Part shown: positions 9,547 through 26,216 of the stretch, in pieces
Position numbering within the stretch: position 1 is the stretch's first letter
How the letters are laid out: the number at the start of each line of letters is the position of its first letter
From: Pseudomonadota bacterium
GTDB taxonomy: Bacteria > Desulfobacterota > Desulfobacteria > Desulfobacterales > JBDRRP01
DNA length: 64,000 nt
Assembly (NCBI GenBank): GCA_043825735.1
Contig: JBDRRP010000022.1
Location: 69,231 to 133,230, forward strand
Direction of reading: 5' to 3'
The notes under the pieces: model-generated
Seen by the model: only the letters and a program-made list of their open reading frames with translations
Database searches by the model: none
What the model was told of the DNA's origin: nothing
Translations under genes and position numbers: made by a program

Positions 9547-9639
9547 GATCACCACGGAGCCACGGAGAGCACGGAGAAAATCAAAAGAGGCTGATTTTGC
9601 ATATAAAATCTCCGTGTCCTGCGTGGCTCCGTGGTGATC
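9547..9639. repeat. Hairpin repeat, CACGGAG-type module
   Basis: GATCACCACGGAGCCACGGAGAGCACGGAGA ... TCTCCGTGTCCTGCGTGGCTCCGTGGTGATC forms an imperfect inverted repeat. A half copy (GGACACGGAGCGCACGGAGG) lies at about 9451-9475. Confidence 0.85.
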
Positions 9640-9730
9640 AAGCAATCTGGATGGGTAGTGCGGAGCGAATTCCACCATCGCCACGCCTAAAAAATTGTAA
9701 CCTATCGATCCGGGCAGGATCATAAAAATC

Positions 9731-10056
9731 ACACACTCATCGAAGGCGCCGCCCCTATCGGCGCTTTCCCCTCCACCTACGAGCCGCCACGCCCCTGGCG
9801 GCTCGTCCTCTTTTGTCTCGGCGTTTTATAAATCCGTCATACCGAAACCGATTCGGTATCCGGAAAATTTTTCCAGCCGTCATACCGGGCTCGACCCGGT
9901 ATCAAGGGGCGCCTTTAACTGGCCATTCTAAACAACTAAAGACATTGAACCGCGAAGTACGCGAAGGGCGCGAAGTTTGATCGAATCGGGTCGCCGGGAA
10001 AAAGCCCCCGGCTCACGATTCGAACAAAGGGGCATGGCCCTGCGGGCATGTTGAGG
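9731..10056 (+). repeat. Left copy of a long direct repeat bracketing hicAB
   Basis: Aligns by eye with 10814-11100. Shared blocks: GCGCCGCCCCTATCGG, a GAGCCGC..GGCGGCTCGTCC+T-run hairpin, GTCATACCGGGCT(C/T)GACCCGGTATC, GGCCATTCTAAACAACT(A/C)AAGACATTGAACCGCGAAG..., TCGAATCGGGTCGCCGGGAAAAAGCCCCCGGCTCAC(G/A)ATTCGAACAAAGGGG. The left copy has an extra ~45 bp hairpin (ATACCGAAACCGATTCGGTAT). Confidence 0.85.
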
Positions 10057-10170: not shown

Positions 10171-10347
10171 ATGAAGAAACGCGACTTGGAAAATGCGCTT
10201 CGCAGGCTTGGATGGGCGTTTCTTCGTCATGGCAAGCGCCATGATATCTGGACCGACGGGGAACGCGAGGAGGCAATCCCTCGCCACAACGAGATCAACG
10301 AAACGCTTGCGAGAGCAATTCTTAGGCGAGCGGAGAGGAAATCCTGA
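10171..10347 (+). CDS. hicA: HicA-family mRNA interferase toxin
   Basis: MKKRDLENALRRLGWAFLRHGKRHDIWTDGEREEAIPRHNEINETLARAILRRAERKS. Size and the G-x-H ... IPRH pattern fit HicA/YcfA. The stop lies 1 nt before the hicB ATG. Confidence 0.8.
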   Translation: MKKRDLENALRRLGWAFLRHGKRHDIWTDGEREEAIPRHNEINETLARAILRRAERKS

Positions 10348-10348: not shown

Positions 10349-10768
10349 ATGCGTTTTTACGGTAAAGTATATAAAGATGGAAAGTTCTGGCTGGCGGAGG
10401 TGCCGCTTCTCGATGCTATGACACAGGGCCATACGCGCATGGAGGCGTTTGGCATGGTTGCGGATTTGTTGGAGAGTTTGGTGAACAGGGCAGGTTTTTC
10501 AGTTACGGTGCACCCGGGCAAGCATGGAGACTTTGAGGTGAGCTCAAGCGATCCGCGCGCCCTGATCAGCCTGTTTTTACGACGGCAGCGTGAAAAGAGC
10601 GGCCTTTCGCTTTCCGAAGCCGCAACGCGGCTGGGCGCCAAGTCACGGAATGCCTATGCCCGATACGAGCGAGGAACCTCGATGCCGAGTATCGAGAAAT
10701 TGACTGAATTATATCAAGCGATTGCGCCCGGAAATGATATTGTTCTGCACAATAGTGTGATTGCATAA
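10349..10768 (+). CDS. hicB: HicB-family antitoxin with C-terminal XRE-type HTH
   Basis: Internal ATG of track ORF 10193..10768. MRFYGKVYKDGKFWLAEVPLLDAMTQGHTRMEAFGMVADLLESL is a HicB-type fold. The C-terminal HTH is SGLSLSEAATRLGAKSRNAYARYERGTSMPSIEKLTELYQAI. Confidence 0.8.
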   Translation: MRFYGKVYKDGKFWLAEVPLLDAMTQGHTRMEAFGMVADLLESLVNRAGFSVTVHPGKHGDFEVSSSDPRALISLFLRRQREKSGLSLSEAATRLGAKSRNAYARYERGTSMPSIEKLTELYQAIAPGNDIVLHNSVIA

Positions 10769-10813
10769 AATAGCTGGTGTGGATGCAAGCAACCCGGTTG
10801 CCGGCAGGGTCCA

Positions 10814-11100
10814 ACACACCATACTACTCATCAAAAGCGCCGCCCCTATCGGTTGTCCGCTACAAACGAGCCGCGACCGCCTGTGGCGGCTCGTCCTTTT
10901 TTTGTCAGGGCGTTACTCCAATCGGTCATACCGGGCTTGACCCGGTATCCAAGGGCGCTTTTAATTGGCCATTCTAAACAACTCAAGACATTGAACCGCG
11001 AAGCGCGCGAAGGACGCTAAGATTTGTTCGAATCGGGTCGCCGGGAAAAAGCCCCCGGCTCACAATTCGAACAAAGGGGCCCGGCCTGCGGGCATGTGGG
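10814..11100 (+). repeat. Right copy of the long direct repeat bracketing hicAB
   Basis: See 9731-10056. Confidence 0.85.
10868..10902 (+). terminator. Rho-independent terminator-like hairpin downstream of hicB (inside the right direct repeat)
   Basis: GAGCCGC-gaccgcctgtg-GCGGCTC followed by GTCCTTTTTTTG. The paralogous hairpin in the left copy is GAGCCGCCA-cgcccc-TGGCGGCTC followed by GTCCTCTTTTG (9781-9816). Confidence 0.6.
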
Positions 11101-11130: not shown

Positions 11131-11273
11131 AATTTTGATGCTTCCGTAAAAAGTCCGAATCTCTCGCAAAGCCGCAAAGATCGCAAAGGCAACACACGAA
11201 TATTAAAGGAGGTTTTCTTGGTGTGCTTAGCGTCCTTGCGAGAAAATTGCTTTTTTACGGATTCATCAATTTT
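11131..11273. repeat. Modular hairpin repeat, CGCAAAG-type
   Basis: Termini AATTTTGATGCTTCCGTAAAAAG ... CTTTTTTACGGATTCATCAATTTT are inverted copies. The left arm is CGCAAAGCCGCAAAGATCGCAAAG (11165-11188) and pairs imperfectly with GCTTAGCGTCCTTGCGAGA. Confidence 0.85.
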
Positions 11274-11458
11274 GAGTTTGAGCCGCTACTTTTATCTTGA
11301 TCCCATCCGACAATCTCGCTAAGAACATTTTCAGATCCCTCATCTACATTCTGGTTTTCCAGCTCAACTCCGGGAAAGCGGTTCGATCCGGCCTTTGCAT
11401 TGGCGCCGGTTCAGCTTCTGAAATGGTTCGGTTCGCAAGAGACCAACAACAGATGGCC

Positions 11459-11591
11459 TCGTAAAAAGTTGAATTTCTCATTTTTCTGTCATCCCGGCGA
11501 AGACCGGGATCCAGAGATTTCAAGCACTACTGGACCCCGGCCTTCGCCGGGAGTGACGCGCTTTGGGGCTTTTTACGGCTCCATCAAAACA
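11459..11591. repeat. Modular hairpin repeat, GTCATCCCGGCGAAGACCGGGATCCAG-type
   Basis: CCTCGTAAAAAG ... GTCATCCCGGCGAAGACCGGGATCCAGAG ... CTGGACCCCGGCCTTCGCCGGGAGTGACG ... CTTTTTACGGCTCCATCAAAAC. Same termini as the other modules. Confidence 0.8.
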
Positions 11592-11592
11592 G

Positions 11593-11760
11593 ATGATCCC
11601 GTAAAAAGTCTGAATCTCTCGCAAAGCCGCAAAGATCGCAAAGCTAAAGGATTGATATTAAATATGCTTTGTTTGGCGCACAGGGCGTCTTCTTGTCCGG
11701 CGTAGCTCGCAGAGCGAAGACTGATGCGAGAATATTGCTTTTTTACGGCGCCATCCAAAC
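11593..11760. repeat. Modular hairpin repeat, CGCAAAG-type
   Basis: GATGATCCCGTAAAAAGTCTGAATCTCTCGCAAAGCCGCAAAGATCGCAAAG ... GCGAGAATATTGCTTTTTTACGGCGCCATCCAAAC. Confidence 0.85.
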
Positions 11761-12065: not shown

Positions 12066-13676
12066 ATGCCGTATAGATATCTAAACGCTCTTTTAGCAAA
12101 AAATGAGTTCTCAGAACATGAATTTAATGATCTGTTGGCCTCTGACGTAAGTGTTACTCCATACGATGTTTCACCTGATCATGGATTTGAAGGTGTCCTG
12201 TATGTAAAAAATTCACAAATGCAGCGGCCACGCTGGAGTTTGCTGGCCGATGCAATTGTTGGTGCTCAGATCGACCAACTTGGTAATAAATCAAGTTCAG
12301 CAGTCTTGCTTATTCGTATAGATGACCATGTATTCGCTTTTACATTTGGATACGGTCGTTTCCTACTAAACATAGCATATTTCGTTCAAGATTTTGGTTT
12401 AAAAACTGCATTGAACACGTTGAACCAACAAAGTCTAAGAAGTGTTGATCTTCACACTTTGGAAGATCAGCCAATTCAGAAAAAATCGCAAGCCGTTAGA
12501 GGCGCGGAAGCGAGTGTGTTCGGCATTGATATCTTTCGTGATGTTCTTCGCGCGGTGACAGGGTCACCTCGAGCCGGAGTAGGATACAAGAATATTTCTG
12601 GTGGTGATGCTATCTATTCTTTCGGCTTGGAAATGCAGGTAAACGAATTCCCCGCTATCACCAAACAACTTTTATCATATTACCAGATTGATCTTTACAA
12701 AAGTTCTTTTGGTTGGGTTGATAATATACGACGAGTCAAAGATAGGGATACAATAAAAGACCTCGATGATTTATTAGTTGAATCTGTAAGATCTAAAGAT
12801 CCCGAGTTAGTCATCACTCTACCCGAAATAATTGCATGGGATAATGTCCATGGATTTAGCTTTACTCGATCAAAACGAGATCTTTCACCAACAATTGACA
12901 CTGAAAAATACCTCGAAAATATTAACGTTGAAGATGTCTCTATCGAGTCAATAAAAAAAGATCGCCTTTTTGTTACGGATGTACACGAAAACAAGTTTCC
13001 TTACTCAATTTATACATGCATCTACTTTGAGATTGATGGAGAAGATACTAAAAAAATAATCTTTGGTGGTCACTGGTATGAAGTAGACAAATCATTTATG
13101 TCAGGAATCGAAGCTACCCTATCAGAAATTGATCTGACTGATATTGAGTTTCCAGGCGTTGAAGTCTGGGTAGAAGATGATGAAAAAAAGATCGAAAATG
13201 AGGGCGATTACAATATACGGGCAGCTGAACACTTAAATTGTTACCTACTCGATAAAAAGCTTGTTAAATGCACAAAGACAACCACCCCAATTGAGCTTTG
13301 TGACCTACTAACAACAGAGAAACAACTTATTCATGTCAAACACAGGAAAGGAGGCTCTGCTGGTTTGAGTCACCTTTTTGCTCAAGGAGGCGTGGCCGCC
13401 GAGGTTCTGTTAGGTGACAAAAGATTCCGTAAAGAAGCACGCAAGGTCCTTAAGCGTGTCAATCCATTTGCGCGTGATCTTGTACCGATAAATAGTATTA
13501 ATAGCCCAGATTATGAAGTAGTGTTTTTAATCCTCGGGAATGAACATGATCAGGTAAAGGCGCAATTGCCTTTTTTTAGCAAAGTGAATCTTACGAGGAC
13601 ATATGAAAACCTTGCTCAACGTGGATTCAGAGTGAAAATTGGCGGGGCTCAAAAGGTCGAAAGAATTATTGCATAA
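12066..13676 (+). CDS. Cassette 1: TIGR04141/DUF6119-like sporadically distributed protein with a C-terminal (D/E)xK nuclease-like motif
   Basis: 536-aa ORF with a GAGGA RBS. Recognised family features: VFAFTFGYGRFLL, LRSVDLHTLEDQPIQKKSQA, and C-terminal PIELCDLLTTEKQLIHVKHRKGGSAGLSHLFAQGGVAAEVLL. The family assignment is from memory, not from a search. Confidence 0.6.
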   Translation: MPYRYLNALLAKNEFSEHEFNDLLASDVSVTPYDVSPDHGFEGVLYVKNSQMQRPRWSLLADAIVGAQIDQLGNKSSSAVLLIRIDDHVFAFTFGYGRFLLNIAYFVQDFGLKTALNTLNQQSLRSVDLHTLEDQPIQKKSQAVRGAEASVFGIDIFRDVLRAVTGSPRAGVGYKNISGGDAIYSFGLEMQVNEFPAITKQLLSYYQIDLYKSSFGWVDNIRRVKDRDTIKDLDDLLVESVRSKDPELVITLPEIIAWDNVHGFSFTRSKRDLSPTIDTEKYLENINVEDVSIESIKKDRLFVTDVHENKFPYSIYTCIYFEIDGEDTKKIIFGGHWYEVDKSFMSGIEATLSEIDLTDIEFPGVEVWVEDDEKKIENEGDYNIRAAEHLNCYLLDKKLVKCTKTTTPIELCDLLTTEKQLIHVKHRKGGSAGLSHLFAQGGVAAEVLLGDKRFRKEARKVLKRVNPFARDLVPINSINSPDYEVVFLILGNEHDQVKAQLPFFSKVNLTRTYENLAQRGFRVKIGGAQKVERIIA

Positions 13677-13733
13677 CAATTTGCTGGTAGGGACGCGCAA
13701 ACTGCCGCGCGCCCTACCAGCAATACGTTGGGA
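13671..13733 (+). other. attC-like site 1
   Basis: R'' GCATAAC contains the stop codon. Then aat, stem TTGCTGGTAGGG(A)CGCGC, loop, CGCGCGCCCTACCAGCAA, tac, R' GTTGGGA. There is one extrahelical A in the R''-side arm. R'' equals rc of the preceding R' (GTTATGC) at 7/7. Confidence 0.75.
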
Positions 13734-13753
13734 TAGAAAAAGGAGCACAATAA

Positions 13754-15163
13754 ATGCATGAAAAGATACTATATCTCGTTATCGCATATTCAATTGCTTC
13801 ATTCTTTGTTATTATTGGCATTTTGACTATAGCGGTAACCTTTTTCGCAAAAGCATTGGAGAAAAAAGGAATCGGTATATCGGATAAAATGAAAAATGTA
13901 TTATTCGCGAAACTTATTTTAGAAGTTATCGCTGTAGGATTTCTTATTTTCTATTCTGGGCCACCTGTTCCGCCCACAACAGGAAATCACACCATTCCTG
14001 GTCATATGAATCATGAAGTTTATCAAATTTACATTTCGGCATTTGATCAATTCGGAAAAGGCAACTATCAAGCTGCTATAGATTTGTTTGCCAGCGCAAT
14101 AGGAAAAGATCCTAAAAACTATATTCTTTATGCCAACCGTAGCGTTGTATACCTTCAAAACAATAAGACAACGGAAGCCATAGAAGATTTGAAAACCGCT
14201 ATGGATCTGTACGCTGAACTAAGCGATCAACAAAAGCGACGCGAACGCATGTATCGCCTTTTGATAGTTAATCAGTTGATAGCCGCGTATGTCTCAGCGA
14301 ATGAATATGAGAAAGCATGTACTATTTATGAAAATGAATCTAACTTGTTAGATGATACATCTGACTCAATAATGAGAATATATAATAATATTGGGAATGC
14401 TTTTTATGAAGATCACAGATGGGCTGAAGCCTCAACCGCATACGAGAAGACGTTCAATCTTGCGAAAAGTCTTGGTAATTCAGAAATGCTAATTAGATCA
14501 AGTATAAATCTTTCAAATTCAAAATATTGGATAAACGGTCAAGAGTTGCAAGCTTTAAGTTCCGCAGAACATGCTATAGAATTGCTCGACACATTCGATC
14601 TTGGAATTGAAAAAGAGGCAGAACTGAGAGCAAGCAGTCTCAATTCGCTAGGCCTTGCAAAATCAATATGCACTGAAAAAGGATTAAAAAATTATTCTAT
14701 TGATTTAATCATTGATGATTATTCTGAAGGGATTGAACTCTTAAAACCCTTTTCCGATAGATCGGAAACCGAATATCTTGTCTTGTCTAATTTATACGCT
14801 AATCGGGCTAATTCTTACAGAGAACTTAAAAATATCGAACTATCTTTTAGTGACTATACCACCGCATGCAATCGGTTTATAAATAGACGATATGAGAATG
14901 GCATTTCTCGTCAATTAGTTGGTATATATAAGATATTAAGAACAAAAGAACCATTACCTAAAAATGAATTGTATGCCCTAATATACTTTGCCAATAAAAT
15001 AGGTTCAAATAAGCCTCCGAAACAAAAGGAAGAGGACCACCAGTTACTGGCTGAAATAGAAACCAAACTTAAAAGTCATCAAAGAACCGAAATTCAAAAG
15101 CATGTATCAAAATATCTTGAGTTGGCGACAAAGATACCTAAAAATGCTTGGGAACAATTCTAA
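13754..15163 (+). CDS. Cassette 2: membrane-anchored TPR-repeat protein
   Basis: 469-aa ORF with an AAGGAG RBS. Two N-terminal hydrophobic helices (ILYLVIAYSIASFFVIIGILTIAVTFF, LILEVIAVGFLIFY), then TPR-like repeats (YQAAIDLFASAIGKDPKNYILYANRSVVYLQNNKTTEAIEDLKTAMDL...). Confidence 0.65.
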   Translation: MHEKILYLVIAYSIASFFVIIGILTIAVTFFAKALEKKGIGISDKMKNVLFAKLILEVIAVGFLIFYSGPPVPPTTGNHTIPGHMNHEVYQIYISAFDQFGKGNYQAAIDLFASAIGKDPKNYILYANRSVVYLQNNKTTEAIEDLKTAMDLYAELSDQQKRRERMYRLLIVNQLIAAYVSANEYEKACTIYENESNLLDDTSDSIMRIYNNIGNAFYEDHRWAEASTAYEKTFNLAKSLGNSEMLIRSSINLSNSKYWINGQELQALSSAEHAIELLDTFDLGIEKEAELRASSLNSLGLAKSICTEKGLKNYSIDLIIDDYSEGIELLKPFSDRSETEYLVLSNLYANRANSYRELKNIELSFSDYTTACNRFINRRYENGISRQLVGIYKILRTKEPLPKNELYALIYFANKIGSNKPPKQKEEDHQLLAEIETKLKSHQRTEIQKHVSKYLELATKIPKNAWEQF

Positions 15164-15234
15164 TCACAATATTGCCTTTTACTCGGATGGCAATTCCGCT
15201 GCGCTCCATTGCCACCGGTGAAGGCGCGTTAGCT
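15164..15234 (+). other. attC-like site 2
   Basis: R'' TCACAAT. Stem GCCTT(T)TAC(T)CGG(A)TGGCAAT against ATTGCCACCGGTGAAGGC. R' GTTAGCT (15228-15234). Extrahelical bases lie in the R''-side arm. R'' matches rc of the preceding R' (TCCCAAC) at 5/7. Confidence 0.6.
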
Positions 15235-15252
15235 TCGTAAACGAGAGTCAAA

Positions 15253-18200
15253 ATGCGATTTCTCAAAGACAGCCCGTCAATACCAGATGCCTTGTTAATT
15301 GCCCGTGATGAAGGGCGGGTGGTATTCTTTTGTGGTGCCGGTGTTTCAAGGGCGCGTGCAGGTTTGCCGGACTTCTTCGGCCTTGCTGACGATGTAATTA
15401 ACAAGCTTGGTGTTCCCACGGATAACCCTGCCTGTAAAATTCTCAATGAAGCCCGGGAGATAGACAATCGAACCGGTGTAAGTGGACTTATTTCAGCGGA
15501 TCGTATTTTCGGACTACTAGAGCGTGATTTCCTTGTACGTGATATCGAAGCCGCAGTTGCTGAAGCTTTGCATCCCGCTGAAGATGTCGGCCTATCCGCT
15601 CACCAAATTTTACTGGATTTGGCAACTACACCTGAAGGTAAGGTGCAATTGGTAACCACTAACTTCGATCGATTGTTTGAAGACTGTTCCGACACGCTAA
15701 AAATCTGGCAACCACCTCGTTTGCCCGATCCAGCGCGGCATGGTGAGATGGATGGGATAATTCACCTTCATGGCTATGCAACCAAGGACTACACCGGTGC
15801 GGAAGGCGACGGCTTCATTCTCTCAAGTTCGGAATTTGGTCGCGCCTATCTATCGGACGGTTGGGCAACTCAGTTTTTCAGAGAGATTCTATACCGCTAT
15901 GTTGTTGTATTCGTAGGATATACGGCAGACGACCCGCCTGTTCATTATTTGCTTGAAGCGCTCAATAAAAAGGCTGGTGGGCTTGACGGTGTTTACGCAT
16001 TTCAATCGGGCATGGCAAACGAGGCAGCAGCAAAATGGCTACACAAAGGTGTTGAGGCCATTCCTTATGCCGAAAATGATGGGCATCGAGCACTATGGGA
16101 AACATTAGCGGCATGGGCAGAAAGGGCAAAGGACCCTGATGAATGGTACAAATCAGTCATTGGCCTCGCCAAGAAGGGACCAGAGCAACTTCAACCACAT
16201 GAACGTGGCCAAGTAGCGCACATAATTTCAACGGTTGAAGGCGCTCGAAAATTTTCGGAGGGTGATGATCCTATACCGGCTGAATGGCTCTGCGTATTCG
16301 ACCCCAATCAGCGCTATTCAAAGCCGGGACGTACAGGGGGTTTTGGCGGGCATGGGCCAATTGTAGATCCGTTCGATCTTTATGGATTGGATACTGATAT
16401 TGTGCCCAAGCAAATAGATCCAGATGATTATTTTGAAAAACGGGAAGTTCCTTCAACTGCATGGGATGCCTTCGCGGCGAATAGGCTGGATCGGCAAAAT
16501 CTCAGAGACGATAGTTTCTCAGCTATTCGGGGGCATTGGGCAACAAACGTCCCCGTACTTCCATCGCGCCTATCAGAGATTGGCACATGGATAATGAAGG
16601 TAGCAGACCAGCCCGCTTCGGTATGGTGGGCAGCAAGTCAATTCGGACTCCATCCAGACATACAAAAGAGAATCCAGTGGCAATTGGAACGCTCGCAAAA
16701 AGAAGCTGGGTCGGTGATACGTCAAGCGTGGCGGTATCTGTTTGAGGCTTGGGAAAAAAACAAAGGAGGCTTCAGTTGGGATTGGTATAAGCTGAAGGCG
16801 GCAATTGACAAAGACGGCTGGAATAGTGCGGTAATTAGAAAATTTGTCGCCATCAATCGTCCATATTTAAAGGTTGAGCGTAATTATTGGAGTGGGCCGA
16901 AACCGCCTCAATGGGAGAAAGACATTAAAATTCAGGATATATTGAGATTAGAGGTGGAGTATCCAAAACCTATAGACGACGCGAATATACCTGATGAATG
17001 GCTCACATTTGCGGTACGAGAACTTCGGAAAAACCTTGAGCACGCGATGCAATTAGAAACCGAATTTTGTGGGTATGGGTTGAATAATATCAGCCCAATC
17101 ATACCGGATGATGCACCAGGTAGTGATCGCTACGGACGAACGCATGGTTTATCGGGTAGCGTTATATCGTTTTCGACGTTTTTCGAACGCTTGATTAAAT
17201 TTGACATTAAGTCGGCAAAGCAAGAAATAGAAGCCTGGCCCGTAAACGATGACACAATTTTCTCCCGATTAAGGATATGGGCATCTGGAAATGGTGAGTT
17301 GGTCTCTGCGAAAGCTTTTGGACCGGTAATCGCGGACTTGAGCGATGAGGCTTTTTGGGACAGCTACCACAAAAGAGATCTCCTAATGGTTTTGGCGAAG
17401 CGTTGGGGCGATTTGAGTGAGCAAACACGAAAAGAAATCGAAAATCGTCTTATTCAAGGTCGCACTAAGTGGGACGGCGAAGACGATGCCGAATTCATAC
17501 ATCACAAGGCATGGGCGACTTTAAACCGTCTTCACTGGTTGGTAAACAAGGGGTGTAAATTCACTTCCGATTTGGGTGCCGAAACCACGAAACTACAGAG
17601 CTTTGCAACTGAATGGAAACCGGAATATTCCGAGAAGGCCGCAGAGTCTATGGAAGGTCGTGGTGGTTGGGTTAAAACTGAAACTGAGCATTCATTACTT
17701 CTACTTGAGCCTCTTGATAGCATTCTCGCAAAAGCTTGTGAGTTGAGCGGGAAAAAAGGAGATTTTCTCGTCGAGAATGATCCGTTTGCTGGACTGTCTG
17801 CCGAACGCCCTATTCGAGCGTTCTCAGCTCTTTCCGACGCAGCGAAACGCGATGAATATCCAGATTGGGCGTGGCGCACATTCTTGAACTCTGAAGCACG
17901 AAAGAGTGACAAACCCCAATTCTCAGCACTTATTGCTGAACGCATTTCAAGATATCCAAATGACGCCGTGGCTGAATTTATTCGCCCCGCATCAGACTGG
18001 ATATTGAATATAAGCCAGCAACTTTCATCTAATTTTCCTAAATCTTTCGACAGAATAATATCGAAACTTGTCAACGTGCTTCGTTCTCAACCGCCTAGCA
18101 GCAACTCCGCAATCGTAAGGGGGAACAAAGAGCCTGATTGGACTATGGAAGCGATCAACGCCCCGGTCGGAAAAATTGCGCAGGCTCTATTTAATGATCC

Positions 18201-19095
18201 GAGAAAGAATGATTTAGAGGTGGGTGAGGGATTCCCTGCAGATTGGCTTATATTCGTGGATAATTTGCTATCATTGAAAGGCGATCTTCGCTGCCATGCC
18301 TTGGTAATATTTGCGCACAACATGAACTGGTTTTACACCATAGATCCGATTTGGACCGAAGCCAACATGCTGTCGGTTTTGGACAGAAGCGATAATTCGG
18401 ATCGAAACGCTATTTGGAGTGGCTTTTTCTGGGGCTCAAAGGTTCCGAACCAAAAGTTATATATGCGGCTGAAGCCAAATTTTTTGACATTTGCGGATAA
18501 ACGCAGCTTGCCAAATCGGAAATATGGAAAGGTGCTTGCCGGCATAATTCTTGCGGGTTGGGGCAGCATTAATGAAAAAACTGGAGAACGGTGCATTTCT
18601 AACGCTGAGATGCATGATGTTCTATTGCATACTGATGACGATTTGCGCTCACATATCCTCTGGCAGGTTGAAAGATGGTCAGAGATTAAAGTAAATGGTT
18701 CAGGTGAAAAGTGGGCTAAAATGTTATCAGAACTTCTTCGAGATGTCTGGCCTCGTCAGAAATCAGCAAAGACACCGCAAATATCAGCTCGTTTGTGTGA
18801 CCTCGCATTCTCAAACGTCGAACGGTTTCCAGAGATAGCGGAAATTGTCCTACCACTACTGACAACCATCGACCGAGATCATTTAATGTTTCCCAATCTG
18901 CGCAAATCTAAAGACAATATTGTTGATTTATATCCGCAGCAAACTTTAGCGCTCTTGCACGCGGTCCTGCCGGACAATGTTGCAGCTTGGCCGTATAGCA
19001 TCGAAGAGACTCTTCAGCGAATAAGCGAGGCCGATAAAAGTTTAAATTCGGACGGAAGACTATTAGAACTCAAACGAAAATGGAATGCCCGTTAA
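15253..19095 (+). CDS. Cassette 3: 1280-aa SIR2_2-domain protein with a large uncharacterised C-terminal region (DSR1-like architecture)
   Basis: N-terminal SIR2-family motifs VVFFCGAGVSRARAGLPDFFGL (GAGxS), LVTTNFDRLFE (TNxD) and DGIIHLHGY (catalytic His), plus VVVFVGYTADDPPVHYLL. The remaining ~950 aa are helical-repeat-like with no motif I recognise. Confidence 0.75.
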   Translation: MRFLKDSPSIPDALLIARDEGRVVFFCGAGVSRARAGLPDFFGLADDVINKLGVPTDNPACKILNEAREIDNRTGVSGLISADRIFGLLERDFLVRDIEAAVAEALHPAEDVGLSAHQILLDLATTPEGKVQLVTTNFDRLFEDCSDTLKIWQPPRLPDPARHGEMDGIIHLHGYATKDYTGAEGDGFILSSSEFGRAYLSDGWATQFFREILYRYVVVFVGYTADDPPVHYLLEALNKKAGGLDGVYAFQSGMANEAAAKWLHKGVEAIPYAENDGHRALWETLAAWAERAKDPDEWYKSVIGLAKKGPEQLQPHERGQVAHIISTVEGARKFSEGDDPIPAEWLCVFDPNQRYSKPGRTGGFGGHGPIVDPFDLYGLDTDIVPKQIDPDDYFEKREVPSTAWDAFAANRLDRQNLRDDSFSAIRGHWATNVPVLPSRLSEIGTWIMKVADQPASVWWAASQFGLHPDIQKRIQWQLERSQKEAGSVIRQAWRYLFEAWEKNKGGFSWDWYKLKAAIDKDGWNSAVIRKFVAINRPYLKVERNYWSGPKPPQWEKDIKIQDILRLEVEYPKPIDDANIPDEWLTFAVRELRKNLEHAMQLETEFCGYGLNNISPIIPDDAPGSDRYGRTHGLSGSVISFSTFFERLIKFDIKSAKQEIEAWPVNDDTIFSRLRIWASGNGELVSAKAFGPVIADLSDEAFWDSYHKRDLLMVLAKRWGDLSEQTRKEIENRLIQGRTKWDGEDDAEFIHHKAWATLNRLHWLVNKGCKFTSDLGAETTKLQSFATEWKPEYSEKAAESMEGRGGWVKTETEHSLLLLEPLDSILAKACELSGKKGDFLVENDPFAGLSAERPIRAFSALSDAAKRDEYPDWAWRTFLNSEARKSDKPQFSALIAERISRYPNDAVAEFIRPASDWILNISQQLSSNFPKSFDRIISKLVNVLRSQPPSSNSAIVRGNKEPDWTMEAINAPVGKIAQALFNDPRKNDLEVGEGFPADWLIFVDNLLSLKGDLRCHALVIFAHNMNWFYTIDPIWTEANMLSVLDRSDNSDRNAIWSGFFWGSKVPNQKLYMRLKPNFLTFADKRSLPNRKYGKVLAGIILAGWGSINEKTGERCISNAEMHDVLLHTDDDLRSHILWQVERWSEIKVNGSGEKWAKMLSELLRDVWPRQKSAKTPQISARLCDLAFSNVERFPEIAEIVLPLLTTIDRDHLMFPNLRKSKDNIVDLYPQQTLALLHAVLPDNVAAWPYSIEETLQRISEADKSLNSDGRLLELKRKWNAR

Positions 19096-19162
19096 GTTTC
19101 GCGTCCTGATACCGCATGACCGCTTTGAGTCGAACGCAGACACTTAAACAGTGATCAAAAAA

Positions 19163-19243
19163 AGCTAACAAACCCATTAACTCGGACAGCAAAAAGCTAC
19201 ACTGCGCTTCACTTTTTGCTGCCGGTTATGGGTGGCGTTAGCC
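19163..19243 (+). other. attC-like site 3 (clearest example)
   Basis: R'' AGCTAAC, aaa, stem CCCAT(T)AAC(T)CGG(A)CAGCAAAAAG, loop ctacactgcgcttca, CTTTTTGCTGCCGGTTATGGG, tggc, R' GTTAGCC. Three extrahelical bases lie in the R''-side arm. R'' equals rc of the preceding R' (GTTAGCT) at 7/7. Confidence 0.8.
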
Positions 19244-19299
19244 AGAAGACTGGCCTTAATACGCTTAGTGACCAAGGATTGTCCCCAGGAGCATAGCCA

Positions 19300-21024
19300 A
19301 TGTTGCAGATAGCGACTGGTCGATTTCATAAGGTTGCTGCGGCCAGGAAACACATAGGTTACGCCACCTTGTTCTCAAGCGGGGATATCTACCGCGATCT
19401 ACGTACACCGATGGGCACCATAAAGCGGTCCACGGCGACTGGACGCCTCGCCGGCCATGTACATGAGTATGTACAACACCATACGGCGCCCGGCGAAGGT
19501 GTTTTGGTGTGGGGTGGTGACCGAGAGCTAAATGACGATTTAGCTGCTGCCATGACGCTGTTCTTGCCTGGCTTTTTTGACGCAGACCAAGCGGTGGTCT
19601 TGGCGGCGACAGAACGGGACCCAAGTGGCCACCCACGCGATGAACGCTTGCCAAGCAACTTCCTGCCATCCAAGTTGCGCCTGCCACTTGCCAATCCCAC
19701 CGGCGAACTCGGTCGCTTTGAATCGCTACTTGACCGTCTGGTACAGCTCCCCCGGTCCGATTTCGAGGTCCTAATCGAAGCGATGCGAGCGTTTAAGCGA
19801 GCAATTCTGGCGCTTCGACTTGATCACCTGCTAGCGTACTCCAATCTCGTATTTTGTCTCGAATCCCTCGCGCAGAATCTGCAACCATACAAGGCGGAAT
19901 GGGAAGACTACCCCGACGCGGACCGGACGCGAATCGAGGTTTCACTCAACGGTTTGGATATAGATATCCAAGAACGGGTCAAAGCAGCGATTATCGAGGA
20001 CCGCCAGTTGCGGTTAACAAAACGGTTCGTCTCTTTTATAGAAGAGCGGGTCCGACCAACATACTATCGAAACGAAGCTTCGGGAATAAAGGGAGCAATT
20101 CGGCCGTCCGAACTAGAAAACTGTCTAAAAGTTGCTTATCAGATTCGGTCTGGGTATGCGCACTCCCTCGCCAAACGCTTCAAACACATTCAGATTCCTA
20201 TGATTGCCGATGGGGAAACGTATACCTGGGATGGCCAAACTGTACCTACTTTTGCCGGATTGGCACGCCTCCTTGAACACGTAATGCGCACGCTAATTAT
20301 GGAGGCTGTCCCGGTGGAACCAGAGGAAATCCCTTTCACAAGGCTCATGCCAGGCGTCATCACGATGAAAGTGGCACCAAAACATGCCCTCGCCAACTAT
20401 AAGGTGTACAAGTCGGGGTGGGCGCAACGGGTTCTATCGCTTGTTGTGACACACCTGTGGTTCCTGCCCGCCGCCAAACCCGTAGAGCGGAAAGTGATCC
20501 TTGTGGAGGAGTTTATGGACGATGCCATCGCCAAATTGGGCCAGATGAACGCTCATGAAGAGTGTTGCGCCCTGAACTTGGTTCGGCTGTACGAGCCGTA
20601 TCTGGGAACCAGCTTGAAACCAGAATGGCGGAAACTGCTCGAAGCAAGCGACGAGAAGCTCCGAAAAGCAAACTGGCCCAATCTGGTTTCTGTAATTCTT
20701 GTAGGCGGATCATTGGATAATGACGGCGATTATGCTCTTACCGCGGCTGACGAACTACAGCGCATCTCAACAAAGAAAAATGGTCCGGATATTCCAAAGG
20801 ACTTGGTCTTGGCCGCTCGCACAGTTGCAGTGTCGATGATATTTGAAGACAAACCGGACCGCGGCAGGGACCTCAATGGAGCCCTCGTGTTGGAAGCCGC
20901 GGGACGGCCGAGAGCGCAAGAACTGATTGAGCGGATTGATGATGAGTACACGATTCCCGAACTCCAACGAGCCCTGCTTGGCGTCCCGGAACCTGAACAA
21001 GCCGGCAGAAAAGATGAGGAATGA
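19300..21024 (+). CDS. Cassette 4: 574-aa hypothetical protein with a central Rx4H (HEPN-type) motif
   Basis: AGGAG RBS at 19287-19291. The motif is CLKVAYQIRSGYAHSLAKRF. No other family signature recognised. GC is visibly higher than in cassettes 1-3. Confidence 0.45.
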   Translation: MLQIATGRFHKVAAARKHIGYATLFSSGDIYRDLRTPMGTIKRSTATGRLAGHVHEYVQHHTAPGEGVLVWGGDRELNDDLAAAMTLFLPGFFDADQAVVLAATERDPSGHPRDERLPSNFLPSKLRLPLANPTGELGRFESLLDRLVQLPRSDFEVLIEAMRAFKRAILALRLDHLLAYSNLVFCLESLAQNLQPYKAEWEDYPDADRTRIEVSLNGLDIDIQERVKAAIIEDRQLRLTKRFVSFIEERVRPTYYRNEASGIKGAIRPSELENCLKVAYQIRSGYAHSLAKRFKHIQIPMIADGETYTWDGQTVPTFAGLARLLEHVMRTLIMEAVPVEPEEIPFTRLMPGVITMKVAPKHALANYKVYKSGWAQRVLSLVVTHLWFLPAAKPVERKVILVEEFMDDAIAKLGQMNAHEECCALNLVRLYEPYLGTSLKPEWRKLLEASDEKLRKANWPNLVSVILVGGSLDNDGDYALTAADELQRISTKKNGPDIPKDLVLAARTVAVSMIFEDKPDRGRDLNGALVLEAAGRPRAQELIERIDDEYTIPELQRALLGVPEPEQAGRKDEE

Positions 21025-21050
21025 GGGGGCGGAAGACTGCTGGACCGTTT

Positions 21051-21116
21051 CGTTAACAAATCGGTCAACACGACCACTCGGCTGCGCCTCGCGGCGGGTT
21101 ACCTCAATCGTTCGGT
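21051..21116 (+). other. attC-like site 4 (weaker)
   Basis: R'' CGTTAAC and R' GTTCGGT. The arms GGT(C)AAC...ACTCGGCTGCG / CGCGGCGGGTTACC pair imperfectly. R'' matches rc of the preceding R' (GGCTAAC) at 5/7. Confidence 0.5.
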
Positions 21117-21123
21117 AAAAGTC

Positions 21124-21708
21124 ATGAAAGCAATCTTAACACGTAGTCAACTTGACCTCATATGGAATATTGAAATTTCTTGCCGTCGATGTGTGCGAGG
21201 TGCTCGGTACTTCAATGCACTACCGAAGTCAAAAGACCGCCGGTGGGCTTACACACAGAACTGTTTCGGAGGTATATCTGTCGTGTTTTGGTGTCAGATT
21301 TTCGGCAGCTATTCGGAGCCAACCCACTACTATAGACTTTTCGCTGAAAACACAACGTTGCCCTTAAGCAGAAGCGATGTAACCACCCGACTGCAAAAGG
21401 CGATAGGCATGACAAAATCCGAATACAAAGAATTCTGGAAGGGCGTCAAAGATGCCCGTGACAAGTTTTTTGTGCATAATGAGTTCGATACGGAAGATAA
21501 ACCACGTTTCCCCGATTTGGGCCTCATGGCCCAAGTCTGTCTCGAAATGAGAATGGTACTTCGTGAGATTCTTGACGCCTGCACTTCAGAAGAAGTCAAA
21601 TTTCAAAAACGCATTGTTCACTGGATTTCTTACTTCACAAACGATGTGTTTCTCAAGGATGTGGAAAAGGATCTCCCACAGCTCCAGAAAGAAGCATCGC
21701 TGAGCTGA
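21124..21708 (+). CDS. Cassette 5: 194-aa hypothetical protein with an Rx5H motif resembling AbiU2-type HEPN
   Basis: The motif is WKGVKDARDKFFVHNEFD. The size fits small stand-alone HEPN/Abi proteins. The assignment rests on the motif only. Confidence 0.4.
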   Translation: MKAILTRSQLDLIWNIEISCRRCVRGARYFNALPKSKDRRWAYTQNCFGGISVVFWCQIFGSYSEPTHYYRLFAENTTLPLSRSDVTTRLQKAIGMTKSEYKEFWKGVKDARDKFFVHNEFDTEDKPRFPDLGLMAQVCLEMRMVLREILDACTSEEVKFQKRIVHWISYFTNDVFLKDVEKDLPQLQKEASLS

Positions 21709-21711
21709 AAA

Positions 21712-21769
21712 ACCGAACCAGGCACTGCACGGTACGGTTTACCACCTCCCGTGAGTGCAACCGTTAGCC
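21712..21769 (+). other. attC-like site 5
   Basis: R'' ACCGAAC, cag, stem GCACT(G)CACGG, 16-nt loop, CCGTGAGTGC, aacc, R' GTTAGCC. R'' equals rc of the preceding R' (GTTCGGT) at 7/7. Confidence 0.7.
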
Positions 21770-21777
21770 GGAGAACT

Positions 21778-22587
21778 ATGGAAAGAATTCCATCATTTGA
21801 TGCTCAAAAACTGGAAGCGGCATGTCGGGTTCTTGCTGATACTGAACGTGGGCTTACCGGTTCAGAGATTGGATATTTACTTCAAGATTGCAAATTAACC
21901 GATACCAGTCCAACTGAGACTAAATGGATAAGACTCTTTAATGCGCTTATTGAAGCCCAAAACAAGTATCAAGTTGGCAACCACTTAATAATGTTTATAA
22001 ATCGTGCCCTTGATCCAGTAAAGTATGCACGGCAAAAAGAAAAATTCGAATGGCGACGGAACGAGTTGAATGTTGTTCTTTCATTTTCTGGTTTTAGCGT
22101 TCGAGAGGACGGCAAGGTTATTCATAGTAAAAAAGAAACGACATTGAAGGGTGCACTGGCAAGGGCCGGGGCTCTGAAATCCAAACTTGATGATAGGAAG
22201 GCGCATGTTGAGATTTTTAAATATTGTAAAGCAGAACTTTTAGAAGAAAATTATTTTCATTCTGTTTTAGAGGCAATCAAGGGCGTGGCCAGTCGAATCA
22301 GAGAGTTGTCCGGCCTTACATCTGATGGGGCTGAGCTTGTAAACAAAGCTTTTTCTGTTAAGTACCCTGTTCTCGCAATAAATACATTGTCAACTGAAAC
22401 CGAACAAAGTGAGCAAAAGGGGTTTAGCAATATGCTTATTGGAATATTCGGCGCAATTAGAAATCCTACTGCACATGCCCCTAAAATATCATGGCCTATT
22501 ACAGAACAAGATGCACTGGATATTTTTTCAATGGTTTCCTATATTCATCGGAAGTTGGATATAACCAGTAAAGTAGGTAGCCCATAG
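21778..22587 (+). CDS. Cassette 6: TIGR02391 (Hypoth_Ymh) family protein, HEPN-type RNxxxH motif
   Basis: The track ORF starts at GTG 21751, inside attC site 5. ATG 21778 follows a GGAGAA RBS just after R'. The C-terminal signature is SEQKGFSNMLIGIFGAIRNPTAHAPKISWPITEQDALDIFSMVSYIHRKLD. Confidence 0.7.
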   Translation: MERIPSFDAQKLEAACRVLADTERGLTGSEIGYLLQDCKLTDTSPTETKWIRLFNALIEAQNKYQVGNHLIMFINRALDPVKYARQKEKFEWRRNELNVVLSFSGFSVREDGKVIHSKKETTLKGALARAGALKSKLDDRKAHVEIFKYCKAELLEENYFHSVLEAIKGVASRIRELSGLTSDGAELVNKAFSVKYPVLAINTLSTETEQSEQKGFSNMLIGIFGAIRNPTAHAPKISWPITEQDALDIFSMVSYIHRKLDITSKVGSP

Positions 22588-22593
22588 GGAGAT

Positions 22594-22655
22594 GGCTAAC
22601 CAAAGGATTAAGAGCGACGGCAAAAAGCCGCCGCGTCTAATGCCTGCCGTTATGC
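22594..22655 (+). other. attC-like site 6 (last site of the array)
   Basis: R'' GGCTAAC, caaa, arms GGATTAAGAGCGACGGC / GCCGCCGCGTCTAATGCC with bulges, tgcc, R' GTTATGC. R'' equals rc of the preceding R' (GTTAGCC) at 7/7. R' is identical to that of site 0. Confidence 0.7.
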
Positions 22656-22723
22656 AACCCCAACATTTAATAAAGTATTTCTTTTTGAATCTGTTTTCTC
22701 AATAATTAGGAGGTAAGGCAGGT

Positions 22724-23599
22724 ATGCTTGGCGGCTCATATACAGCAATGATCACTCCCTTCAAAAATGGAGCGCTTGATGAAACGGCGTTCCGGCGAAT
22801 GGTCAATTGGCAAATTGATAACGGAACCCAGGGATTGGTACCCATGGGTACTACAGGAGAATCCACAACCGTAACCGAAGAAGAGCACAAACGAGCTGTT
22901 GAAATAGTTGTTGAGGAAGTGGCCGGTCGTGTTCCGGTCATCGCAGGTGCCGGATCAAACAACCCTGTTGAAGCGCTCCGTTATGCACAGGGTGCACAAG
23001 AAGCAGGTGCAGATGCGATACTGTGTGTAGCGGGTTATTACAATCGCCCCTCCCAAGAAGGCATATATCAACACTTCAAATACGTTCATGACGGAACCGA
23101 TATCCCGATCATTGTCTACAATATTCCCCCGCGCACCATTATCGACATTTCGCCCGAGACCATGGCAAAGCTGGCAGCATTGCCGCGTGTCATTGGAGTA
23201 AAAGATGCCACGATGGATTTGTCCAGGATAAGCCGTGAGAGAATGCTTATCAAAAAACCATTCAGATATTTTTCAGGGGAAGATATGACAGCGGTCGCGT
23301 ATAACGCAAATGGAGGAAACGGCTGTATATCAGTAACCGCAAATATCGCTCCAGGGTTATGTTCACAAATGCAGAGCGCCTGTATTGCAGGAAACTACAA
23401 ACATGCATTGGAATTGCACGAAAAGCTCGTGCCGTTGCATCAAGCATTATTTCAAGAGCCAAGTCCATCCGGCGTCAAGTATGCTGCTTCACTAATGGGT
23501 TTGTGTAGCGCTGAAGCCCGCCTTCCCATGGTACCGGTTAACGAGCAGACAAAGGTTAATATTCGAAAAATAATGGAGGATTTAAAACTGACAAACTAG
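22724..23599 (+). CDS. dapA: 4-hydroxy-tetrahydrodipicolinate synthase (DapA family)
   Basis: 291 aa with an AGGAGG RBS. MITPFKNGALDETAFRRMVNWQIDNGTQGLVPMGTTGESTTVTEEEHKRAVE...YNIPPRT...GVKDAT is typical DapA/NAL-family sequence. Composition is intermediate (29/60 GC at 22801-22860). Confidence 0.85.
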   Translation: MLGGSYTAMITPFKNGALDETAFRRMVNWQIDNGTQGLVPMGTTGESTTVTEEEHKRAVEIVVEEVAGRVPVIAGAGSNNPVEALRYAQGAQEAGADAILCVAGYYNRPSQEGIYQHFKYVHDGTDIPIIVYNIPPRTIIDISPETMAKLAALPRVIGVKDATMDLSRISRERMLIKKPFRYFSGEDMTAVAYNANGGNGCISVTANIAPGLCSQMQSACIAGNYKHALELHEKLVPLHQALFQEPSPSGVKYAASLMGLCSAEARLPMVPVNEQTKVNIRKIMEDLKLTN

Positions 23600-23727
23600 T
23601 AAAAAGTCTAGAATCACCACAGAGGACACAGAGAGCGCAGAGATAACTTATTAATTATTCATCATATTCTCTGCGGTCCTCTGCGGTCTCTGTGGTTCGA
23701 AATCACTTTTTACGGATTAATCAAAAC
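23599..23727. repeat. Modular hairpin repeat, CACAGAG-type
   Basis: GTAAAAAGTCTAGAATCACCACAGAGGACACAGAGAGCGCAGAGA ... TCTCTGCGGTCCTCTGCGGTCTCTGTGGTTCGAAATCACTTTTTACGGATTAATCAAAAC. It starts at the dapA stop. Confidence 0.85.
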
Positions 23728-23753
23728 TAATTTGAAAAGATGCATCTAATGAG

Positions 23754-23999
23754 GTGCCAATGACGGCAAAGAAGGAAATCGTTTTTCTGTTGGTTTCATT
23801 GGTTACTCTGGTCTTTCTCAAAGTCTCGGCAGATGGCGGTCCGTGTCCTCCAGGCGGCACCCACCGGTATTTTTTCAAGCTCTATGCCCTCGATGTCGAA
23901 CTCGCACAGGAACCGGGGCTTACCAAGGCCAAATTGATCGAGGCCATGAAGGGCCATATCCTGGCCGAAGGGCAGCTGATGGGGCGGTACAAACGATAA
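23754..23999 (+). pseudogene. Truncated PEBP/YbhB-YbcL family gene (only the C-terminal ~60 codons are family-like)
   Basis: [54 protein letters not shown] matches the conserved C-terminus of bacterial PEBP proteins. The N-terminal ~100 residues of the family are absent. Confidence 0.55.
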
Positions 24000-24048
24000 G
24001 AGGGCCCGGGGCATTAATAGAAAACACGCTGAACAAAGGAAGGCGTTT

Positions 24049-25476
24049 ATGTCTGTCATGAGAGCATGCGGCCTATTGGCGCTAGTTGGCCTGCTGAATG
24101 TAACAGCCGCCATCCGGCCGGCAATTGCAGGTGCTTATGACACGGTCTGGGCCGTGGTCAACAAGGGCGCGTTCGTGATCCCGAGCGAAGACGCGGGTTA
24201 TACCGATCCGGAAGGAAGGGCCGCCGGAAAGCGGATCGGTTACATCCCTGCAGGCGATCTGGTCAGGGTCGGCGTCTGCAGCCATGTCAATGGTCCGGAC
24301 GAAGAATCGACAGGCAACTACTGCAACGTCCACAGTGAAAACGGGGTCCAGGGTAAGACCATTGAAACACAGCTTTCCCCCCTCCGTCCGGGGAGCACCT
24401 ATGCCGTTGCCAGAAGTGAGATCGCACTATACGACCGCGAGCGCACCACCCAGCCGCGCGGCCGGTTTTCCAGGAACGCAGGACTTATCGTCGAAATCGT
24501 CGGCGACTGGCAGCAAGCGCCGCCCGAAGCCGCCGTCGATGTCATCGCCACATACAACGTCGGCAAAGCCGACGCTGTGACCGAGGTGGCAATTTTAAAA
24601 AGCGATCTCATCGAATCCACCCACATCATCGAAATCCCGGCGAACGCAGAAACTTCGCCGATGAAGTATGTCGCGCAGCGGTCACCGACCGGCGTTCTGG
24701 GGCTCATCGGTGAACCGGTCGGCATGTGGATTTTCAGGCCGGCCACCGCCGAATCCGCCGCCGTCCTGGCCGACCGCGTCTACCAGGACCTGGGATGGCA
24801 AGATGAAACCGGCACTGATGCAAAGGCACTGATCGCCAAGGCTTTCGACCTCACCACCACCACGCTGGACAAAATTCTCTGCACGGCGGCCATGGACCTG
24901 AAGGTGTCTTCGGGGTTCGAGGTGCTGGGAAACGAGTTGAAACTCAGCGGCGCCCTGCCAATCTACCGAACGGGCAAACTTTTTGATTTCGATGTGGATG
25001 TGATCGAACGCGACGGCAGGGTTCAGTACTGGGTGCTCACATCGAAAACCGTTACCTGCGATATGGGTGCCGGCATCTATGATTCCCGACCTAGGGCAGT
25101 GGACAGTGTGACGGTGTCGGTCTTTCGCAAGGGCCATGCAACCGACGTGCCGGTGCGTCTGACCGTGGATGGTGCCAAGCGATTGGGGCTTGGCATACCC
25201 GACGCGGTGGATCGGTACAATATCCCCCGTCTGTTCATCATTGAAGAATACCTGAATTATTTTGCAGCGCGGCGGTACATCGCCGACAGAATTGCCAATT
25301 CGACGATTTACGACGAAATGTCCCGGCAGGAGCGGATCATTCTCTATCATGTGCTTATCGCCAAGCTGGCCTATTTCCCCCGTGAGGTGGCTCCGGAAGA
25401 TGTCGCCGCCCATTCGGCGCCCGAAAATGAGCCTGGAAGTGCAAAGGCGGTTAAGTATTTAAGCCTGTTAAAGTAA
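24049..25476 (+). CDS. Secreted hypothetical protein (475 aa)
   Basis: RBS AAGGAAGG. Signal peptide MSVMRACGLLALVGLLNVTAAIRPAIAGA. No recognisable family motif. Confidence 0.55.
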   Translation: MSVMRACGLLALVGLLNVTAAIRPAIAGAYDTVWAVVNKGAFVIPSEDAGYTDPEGRAAGKRIGYIPAGDLVRVGVCSHVNGPDEESTGNYCNVHSENGVQGKTIETQLSPLRPGSTYAVARSEIALYDRERTTQPRGRFSRNAGLIVEIVGDWQQAPPEAAVDVIATYNVGKADAVTEVAILKSDLIESTHIIEIPANAETSPMKYVAQRSPTGVLGLIGEPVGMWIFRPATAESAAVLADRVYQDLGWQDETGTDAKALIAKAFDLTTTTLDKILCTAAMDLKVSSGFEVLGNELKLSGALPIYRTGKLFDFDVDVIERDGRVQYWVLTSKTVTCDMGAGIYDSRPRAVDSVTVSVFRKGHATDVPVRLTVDGAKRLGLGIPDAVDRYNIPRLFIIEEYLNYFAARRYIADRIANSTIYDEMSRQERIILYHVLIAKLAYFPREVAPEDVAAHSAPENEPGSAKAVKYLSLLK

Positions 25477-25492
25477 AGAATACTATTTAAAG

Positions 25493-26053: not shown

Positions 26054-26216
26054 AAGCGTCCAGACAAGGGTGTGAACACCGGAAGGGGGACTAAGAAGCT
26101 CCAGCAACCTTATGTTGCCGCAAAACGCGCCATGAATGCCGAGTCTCGGGGCGCCGATGGATCGGTCCACCGGACAACTTGAGCTTCATGGATATGCGTC
26201 AAAAAGGAAAAAAGCC

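Follow-up and report, generated by a model that had tools for sequence, protein, structure and literature searches.

Bacterial MITEs such as Correia, ERIC, RUP, and Nezha are non-coding elements of ~100 to 170 bp that lie between genes, form long hairpins, and carry inverted repeats and target duplications, with mobility documented by filled and empty sites in related genomes (PMC3184786). The MITE Chunjie was described from Geobacter uraniireducens Rf4, a deltaproteobacterium in the older sense (Chen et al. 2008; PMC3184786, PMC10969869). Its dozens of intergenic copies vary in size, some being partial and without ends, and it has terminal inverted repeats of ~21 bp, direct repeats at its flanks, and a stable, long hairpin (PMC3184786, PMC10969869). 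REP, BIME, and REPIN sequences are also multicopy, extragenic, palindromic hairpins (REPIN as defined in PMC3116915), and REP sequences display no MITE signatures (PMC3184786). A 2024 review of prokaryotic MITEs has no entry for Desulfobacterales. Here, we report a repeat family from a 64-kb window (the whole stretch of DNA analyzed, 64,000 nucleotides) of a Desulfobacterales genome. The repeats taken as a whole are very probably a MITE family moved in trans by a transposase encoded outside the window.

The family shares all of the Chunjie features listed above. It differs in size (130 to 160 bp, against 178 to 235 bp) and in duplication length (6 to 7 bp, against 9 bp) (PMC3184786), and its different termini and tandem CRCRRAG arms set it apart from the Chunjie description. 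Correia, ERIC, RUP, and Nezha differ from it in hosts, termini, and duplication lengths, and here one terminus is common to at least eight unrelated cores. Unlike REPs, the elements have both termini and duplications. A search of the open literature for the termini and the triplet strings returned nothing relevant, only unrelated primer matches, and the family is apparently an undescribed member of a well-known kind of element rather than a new kind of system.

The window contains six full copies and about six partial ones. A full copy measures 130 to 164 bp and ends in a 20-bp inverted repeat, GATG-NNN-YCGTAAAAAGTC. Copies were scored against a triplet profile built from metagenome copies only, with the window copies left out, and, for one core type, against a GTCAY-doublet profile from other genomes; z-scores refer to predicted hairpins. 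The features are as follows.

9550-9635: terminus-less inner hairpin with CACGGAG units (profile positions 26-105 only, E 4e-8; z -13.5)
9951-9975, + strand: lone CGCGAAG triplet arm that has no partner to pair with, within the long direct repeat upstream of hicAB
10997-11021: twin of the solitary CGCGAAG arm, in the second long direct repeat
11131-11136 and 11268-11273: exact 6-bp target-site duplication, AATTTT, of the next copy
11137-11267: full 131-bp triplet-arm MITE, CGCAAAG subfamily (profile full length, E 1e-21; z -4.7)
11452-11585: full 134-bp copy with the usual termini, its core an inverted doublet of a REP-like GTCA-stem-loop-stem-TCCA unit (GTCAY-doublet profile full length, E 3e-22; z -7.3); flanks ACAACA / AAAACA
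11592-11755: 164-bp copy, CGCAAAG subfamily, its right arm carrying a nested 33-nt hairpin module (from the alignment of window copies; profile positions 1-131, E 3e-13); flanks AAAACA / CAAACA
23584-23589 and 23723-23728: exact target-site duplication, AAAACT, of the next copy
23590-23722: full 133-bp copy, CACAGAG subfamily, its left terminus, GACAAACTAGTAAAAAG, degenerate (profile full length, 23591-23721, E 4e-19; z -7.4)
31438-31443 and 31574-31579: exact target-site duplication, AAACTT, of the next copy
31444-31573: full 130-bp copy, CGCAAAG subfamily, in the opposite orientation to the 11137 copy (profile full length, E 6e-26; z -8.1)
38054-38185: older 132-bp copy, CACAGAG subfamily, 81 to 82% identical to the copy at 23.6 kb, with decayed termini (TATA...TGTAAAAAG / CTTTTTGCG...TATC) and a decayed duplication (AAAATT / GACATT) (profile near full length, 38058-38185, positions 1-127, E 1e-14; z -6.7)
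42061-42136: left half copy with an altered terminus, GATGGCCCCGAAAAAACGGGG (profile positions 1-78 on the best strand, E 3e-5)
42218-42327: terminus-less inner hairpin with GCAGAGG units (profile positions 14-120 only, E 1e-8; z -7.6)
42345-42373: possible decayed right terminus, GAGAGAAAATCGCTTTTTCACG, a weak assignment (direct-repeat family; weak profile match at 42318-42367)
47780-47886: partial copy with one terminus (CTTTTTACGGATTCATC, right end) and one GTCAC unit with a loop insert (GTCAY profile positions 93-132, E 5e-6)
54255-54312: right half of a CGCAAAG-subfamily copy (direct-repeat family; profile positions 74-131, E 3e-7)

A copy or fragment thus lies at every site where the original prediction, made from the window alone, had placed one. 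The range 11131-11273 proved to hold one 131-bp copy (11137-11267), the remainder being its two AATTTT duplications. The copies at 11452 and 11592 have the AAAACA between them in common, which points to two successive insertions into one target. The three parts at 42061-42136, 42218-42327, and 42345-42373 may be one disrupted copy of 313 bp. Dinucleotide-preserving shuffles predict 0.38 occurrences of the nonamer CGTAAAAAG, and the window has 8; three-unit CRCRRAG runs with 8- to 9-bp spacing number 9 in the window and appear in none of 50 shuffles.

The extent of the termini was taken from 339 non-identical ends (window and related loci), which gave the profile GATG(G)-NN-CCGTAAAAAGT(C), with conservation stopping outside GATG. 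The termini had been predicted as TTGATG...CATCAA; the ends are really GATG...CATC, and the TT and AA are part of the duplicated target. Shared termini hold for most of the predicted copies, and the exceptions are the hairpins at 9547-9639 and 42218-42320, which have none and match the inner family profile only. Nor does every module have the complementary arm ascribed to it, as the CGCGAAG arms at 9951-9975 and 10997-11021 are without a partner.

Target duplications were scored in the window and in 242 loci fetched from genomes and metagenomes, which together gave 154 paired ends. Exact duplications flanked 66 of these (53 of 6 bp and 13 of 7 bp), and 82 had at most one mismatch; mismatched control pairs, with left and right flanks from different copies, matched at 6 bp or more in ~0.9%. 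The genome-scan loci had an exact 6- to 7-bp flank duplication at 39 of 120 left ends, and among strict full-length triplet copies from metagenomes a duplication was present in 24 of 31. The duplicated sequence varies from copy to copy around the consensus AANNTT, and where longer flanks of copies from other genomes were read, direct repeats adjoin GATG...CATC on the outside. About half of the copies have no exact duplication, presumably through decay. Ends of the form TG...CA with a 4- to 5-bp duplication were considered and rejected; a 6-bp duplication is the simpler reading, since exact 6-mers at the GATG...CATC boundaries already need an A-N4-T target.

One clean empty site was found. Locus L061 (...CGTATGCTTTCTGG...) has a single ATGCTTT, and its filled counterpart, L065, reads ATGCTTT followed by an element (GATGG...152 bp...CCATC) and then ATGCTTTCTGG, a sequence that runs uninterrupted in L061; the flanks of the two loci are ~92% identical. 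Two further candidates had non-homologous right flanks. As supporting evidence, presence or absence downstream of PPDK adds to this case: in three relatives (86 to 90% protein identity) the spacer that carries the partial copy in the window is only 16, 57, and 75 bp long.

Variable duplications and an empty site fit insertion by staggered transposase cleavage, and the published definition of bacterial MITEs fits the feature set (PMC3184786). That definition covers short elements (less than ~400 bp) without coding capacity, and the full copies here are 130 to 164 bp, with no Pfam match for the ORFs that overlap copies; terminal inverted repeats, copy-specific duplications, many dispersed copies, and a filled/empty site pair were all found. 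The MITE-like dispersed family first proposed from the window is accordingly demonstrated in its termini, duplications, one empty site, dispersal, and variety of cores, and the trans-acting protein that the conserved termini had been taken to imply gains support. In the mechanism that we propose, a transposase encoded outside the window would bind the 20-bp inverted repeat at both ends, excise or copy the 130- to 160-bp unit, and insert it at AT-rich, AANNTT-like targets through staggered cuts of 6 bp (sometimes 7 bp), the repair of which would leave the flanking duplication. The interior would be cargo that the enzyme need not read. We infer an enzyme of the DDE type, acting in trans on the termini. 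The ordered triplet arms, and the inner hairpins that lack termini and match only the inner profile, are a misfit to this simple MITE logic, which does not explain them.

The original prediction also offered a REP/BIME reading, on which the same results bear; such a family, or a REPIN family, would be spread by a RAYT, the HUH tyrosine transposase that reads hairpins as single-stranded DNA. The copies are indeed extragenic, palindromic, and hairpin forming, and the GTCA unit has a 5' tetranucleotide, compensatory stems, and inverted doublets inside and outside the termini, as in REPINs (PMC3116915). This reading is nonetheless contradicted by the 20-bp terminal inverted repeats, the variable 6- to 7-bp duplications, and the precise empty site, and no Y1 transposase is present among the window ORFs. 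To our knowledge, HUH-type transposition (IS200/IS605, RAYT) makes no such target duplication. We therefore regard RAYT-driven spread as unlikely for the family, and it could apply to the GTCA core units alone, outside the termini.

Dispersal was assessed with a termini-anchored census of the kind that the original prediction had suggested. A scan of one genome per species with the pattern CCGTAAAAAG-N85-115-CTTTTTACGG matched at least 117 stretches, and the first 80 matches listed include true copies from at least 29 MAGs. Nearly all carrier MAGs among the matches listed were Desulfobacterales (Desulfobacteraceae, Desulfosalsimonas, Desulfosarcina, Desulfococcus, and Desulfatitalea), with a few Syntrophales and others. 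Matches in Bacillus, Eisenbergiella, and a Clostridia MAG, and a separate Pygmaiobacter repeat, were unrelated to the family. A metagenome scan for the terminus plus two CRCRRAG units found at least 120 contigs. In an independent assembly of the same organism, contigs end inside copies, as a multicopy repeat predicts. The MITE family is thus abundant and widespread among sulfate-reducing sediment bacteria.

These numbers leave next to no room for the view that the repeats are a handful of local duplications in this region. Three copies do lie within 630 bp, and two arms sit inside a duplicated 340-bp repeat, but the family is carried by the MAGs and metagenome contigs just counted, the window copies are recovered by a profile from other samples, and one terminus surrounds at least eight unrelated cores.

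Between the termini, clustering separated at least eight unrelated classes of core, the triplet class among them. One class, with a 91-nt core, comprised 120 copies in 83 loci; the GTCAYYCCSGC doublet class comprised 16 copies, including the window copy at 11452; and several further classes were singletons. In this genome the core cargo is mostly an imperfect hairpin with two to three CRCRRAG units of 8 to 9 bp per arm, with one GTCA doublet, and other Desulfobacterales carry several other hairpins. A core-less ancestor consisting of termini only was not found.

Among strict triplet copies the commonest length is 131 bp, and they align end to end, including linkers and the AT-rich loop. The metagenome-only profile recovers five window copies at full or near full length (E 3e-13 to 6e-26), so the arms are diverged subfamilies and not swapped modules. 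The CGCAAAG, CACAGAG, CACGGAG, and GCAGAGG arms are diverged versions of one ~131-bp element; they differ by transitions at three purine positions, and all eight CRCRRAG variants are present. Arms have two units (104 arms), three units (116 arms), or four to five units (4 arms), with a period of 8 bp in 153 cases and 9 bp in 185. The idea of interchangeable modules therefore fails for the CRCRRAG arms and stands for the GTCAYCC core and several others, which are unrelated cargo.

In the GTCA-stem-loop-stem-TCYA unit the 5' tetranucleotide is conserved and the stem varies in a compensatory manner, with at least 10 such variants. The unit lies inside termini in 29 cases and outside them in ~12, including 9836, 9879, and 10925 in the window. 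By analogy, this unit behaves like a REP and its inverted doublet like a REPIN (PMC3116915). The CRCRRAG triplet arms and the termini are without such a REP-type unit (5' tetranucleotide plus covarying stem). Small hairpins are nested in two copies, one at 11592-11755 and one at locus L030:66-296.

One terminus common to many hairpin cargos makes two ideas testable, namely, MITE diversification and the hitchhiking of REP-like hairpins on a transposase of another kind. A bolder version, which we consider possible but doubtful, is that the 20-bp terminus is a generic vehicle. One transposase, possibly of a poorly characterized family, would then move a guild of unrelated hairpin cargos, including REP-like GTCA doublets thought to depend on RAYTs, and the CRCRRAG arrays (C1, C3, A6, and G7 fixed; 8- to 9-bp period; two to five units) would be functional arrays for a host or transposon protein rather than slippage debris.

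Long hairpins were predicted in seven of the eight window copies folded (z-scores, -4.7 to -13.5). The copy at 11592-11755 (folded as 11600-11749) has no long hairpin (z -0.4), because the 33-nt insert interrupts its right arm. The stability of these hairpins, and the position of most window copies just after stop codons or between convergent genes, would suit selected functional RNA or transcription elements (small RNAs, mRNA-stabilizing hairpins, or bidirectional terminators) that are not mobile. There is also some arm covariation: on a hand-specified structure, 33 double-change cells were counted against 21.7 ± 4.6 in shuffles, a count reached in 3 of 500 shuffles, and 83.7% of cells were paired on that structure against 82.6% in shuffles. 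Such covariation can stem from shared ancestry.

Other results run against an RNA role. No Rfam 15 family matched at gathering score in the window or six related loci, and permissive E-values brought up only generic plant miRNA-precursor hairpins, below threshold. Arm positions are only about two-thirds Watson-Crick paired. With copies oriented by alignment, G.U-compatible mismatches numbered 116 and 102 on the two strands (p = 0.38), and this equality gives no hint that the transcript of one particular strand is selected. Neither this symmetry, nor the incomplete pairing, nor the modest covariation favors the suggestion in the original prediction that the 8- to 9-bp periodicity marks a protein- or RNA-binding unit. 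A consensus scan for a hairpin plus T-run terminator matched none of the long MITE hairpins; its matches inside copies were short local stems in the nested-insert region of 11592-11755 only, and the T-run of the copies is part of the outer stem. The duplications and the empty site show insertion. Immobile RNA elements are thus a very improbable account of the family. Because the evidence for hairpin selection is weak, we take any role as RNA or terminator to be a possible side effect and not the nature of the element.

Integron attC sites have conserved inverted ends, variable imperfect-hairpin centers, and similar lengths. That likeness in hairpin centers and length, and the presence of copies near a hicAB cassette bracketed by long direct repeats, raise the reading that the repeats are sites of a site-specific recombinase, like attC sites bounding cassettes. 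The ends, however, are GATG...CATC and not RYYYAAC...GTTRRRY core sites, and the flanking duplications vary between copies, which excludes recombination at a fixed core. The window ORFs include no integrase, and copies are scattered singly among housekeeping genes. We consider recombinase sites extremely unlikely. Another modular comparison is with pneumococcal BOX and neisserial NIME/dRS3, units made from combinable submodules, some of them short palindromes of the ATTCCC-N8-GGGAAT type. Those palindromes presumably resemble the GTCATTCCCGC...GCGGGAATC core found here, and we know of no common inverted terminus with a 6-bp duplication in BOX or NIME/dRS3 arrays.

The mobilizing enzyme was sought in the window and beyond. 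The original prediction had noted no RAYT or transposase in the window, and a Pfam search of its ~45 ORFs agreed, with no match to a transposase, RAYT, Y1 transposase, or integrase. An autonomous partner with these termini was absent from 1.49 Mb of fetched DNA, mostly MAG derived. Pairs of termini 300 to 8,000 bp apart, with or without matching duplication, enclosed only ordinary genes between separate copies (an EAL regulator, a TraB-like protein, glmM, and glucosamine-6-phosphate deaminase). An untargeted search for insertion sequences of any kind, defined by inverted ends plus a duplication, gave one chance match, and clustering of 1,739 ORFs for multicopy proteins gave syntenic orthologues only. 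Orphan ends were rejected as traces of a partner, being decayed copies. A scan of viral contigs found no partner and mostly chance matches in coding sequence (e.g., a phage portal-like ORF), and a plasmid BLAST search returned no match. MAGs tend to be poor in insertion sequences, so the missing partner is weak evidence. Parent insertion sequences are known for several of the Correia, ERIC, RUP, and Nezha families, and the ISNCY/ISDol1 group, named after Desulfococcus oleovorans (Desulfobacterales), is listed with 6- to 7-bp duplications.

A repeat of Desulfobacterales and sediment bacteria is now precisely defined by its ends, its 6-bp AANNTT-like duplication, and its modal length of 131 bp. 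Short-read assemblies break at its copies, which also give rise to spurious ORFs, change the ends of genes, and gather at island borders; a MITE profile would improve MAG annotation, and the copies are a marker for strain-level insertion polymorphism.

All window copies are intergenic or at gene ends, where they may affect neighboring genes. The copy at 23590-23722 overlaps the DHDPS ORF (22724-23599) and supplies its last three codons and stop, the copy at 38054-38185 lies between convergent AcrB-type and OEP genes, and the putative terminus at 42345-42373 overlaps the 3' end of an ABC-transporter ORF. The gene remnant reported at the 31444-31573 copy is real: ORF 31524-31880 is a C-terminal ornithine-cyclodeaminase remnant that matches only positions 221-304 of 314 of OCD_Mu_crystall. 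A 20-kb low-GC island, which looks like a defense island, is bordered by the cluster at 11137-11755 on one side and by the 31444 copy, beside the cyclodeaminase remnant, on the other. A composite transposon carrying this island was rejected because the bounding copies each keep their own duplication. The partial copy at 47780-47886 lies just downstream of the PPDK stop codon. The closest relatives of the window PPDK itself are in Desulfosarcinaceae and Desulfobacteraceae.

The copy of the MITE (a non-coding hairpin element with GATG...CATC inverted termini) at window positions 23584-23728 sits within the final codons of the DHDPS open reading frame, and the C terminus of the protein (...Thr-Asn-stop) comes from MITE sequence; the empty site, as reconstructed, would encode ...Leu-Ile-stop. 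In Logan assembly SRR26275510, two short contigs from the same organism (L119 and L001) stop inside the MITE copies at 23.6 kb and 11.7 kb, and MITE repeats therefore fragment short-read assemblies.

MITE copies, together with a truncated ornithine-cyclodeaminase gene (31524-31880), also form the borders of an island of low GC content (0.40-0.49 versus about 0.61), which resembles a defence island and was annotated as follows:
12066-31089, low-GC island: DUF6119, TPR protein, SIR2_2-domain protein (1280 aa), Hypoth_Ymh, DHDPS, metallophosphoesterase, radical SAM protein and CBM9 protein

A toxin-antitoxin gene pair, hicAB, is enclosed by direct repeats:
9700-10040 and 10780-11090, direct repeats either side of hicAB (~310-340 bp; identity, 89-94%)
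10171-10347, hicA (HicA toxin)
10349-10768, hicB (HTH antitoxin)

Within each repeat are a hairpin resembling a terminator, stem-loop units of the form GTCATACCG...CGGTATC and a single CGCGAAG triplet arm that lacks a pairing partner (such an arm is an array of 8-9 bp units, normally one side of the MITE hairpin), and the whole looks like a duplicated cassette boundary.

One MITE copy carries a small GTCCGGCGTAGCTCGCAGAGCGAAGAC-like hairpin module within its right arm (module at 11692-11724), and another carries it in the loop of a GTCAC unit, a REP-like stem-loop core (module at 47815-47850); this module may be a further mini-repeat family. MITE copies in other genomes enclose a nested hairpin rich in C/G, CCCTCCCCCTCGAGGGGGGAGGG...GGGTGGGGG (L030:66-296 and L141).

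In the spacer downstream of PPDK in two relatives (L121:12730-12788 and L122:4300-4376), a small hairpin differs between the relatives (CACGGGACACGGAG...CCCGTGTTCTCCGCGG in L121), and this position seems to be a repeated landing place of hairpin repeats.

A repeat of ~110-128 bp with conserved flanks, found in a metagenome-assembled genome (MAG) of the Firmicutes member "Candidatus Pygmaiobacter gallistercoris" (L031, L042, L053, L107, L114 and L115), starts with CCGTAAAAAGG and ends with CCTTTTTACGG; its resemblance to the MITE is by chance, and it is a separate, unrelated family.
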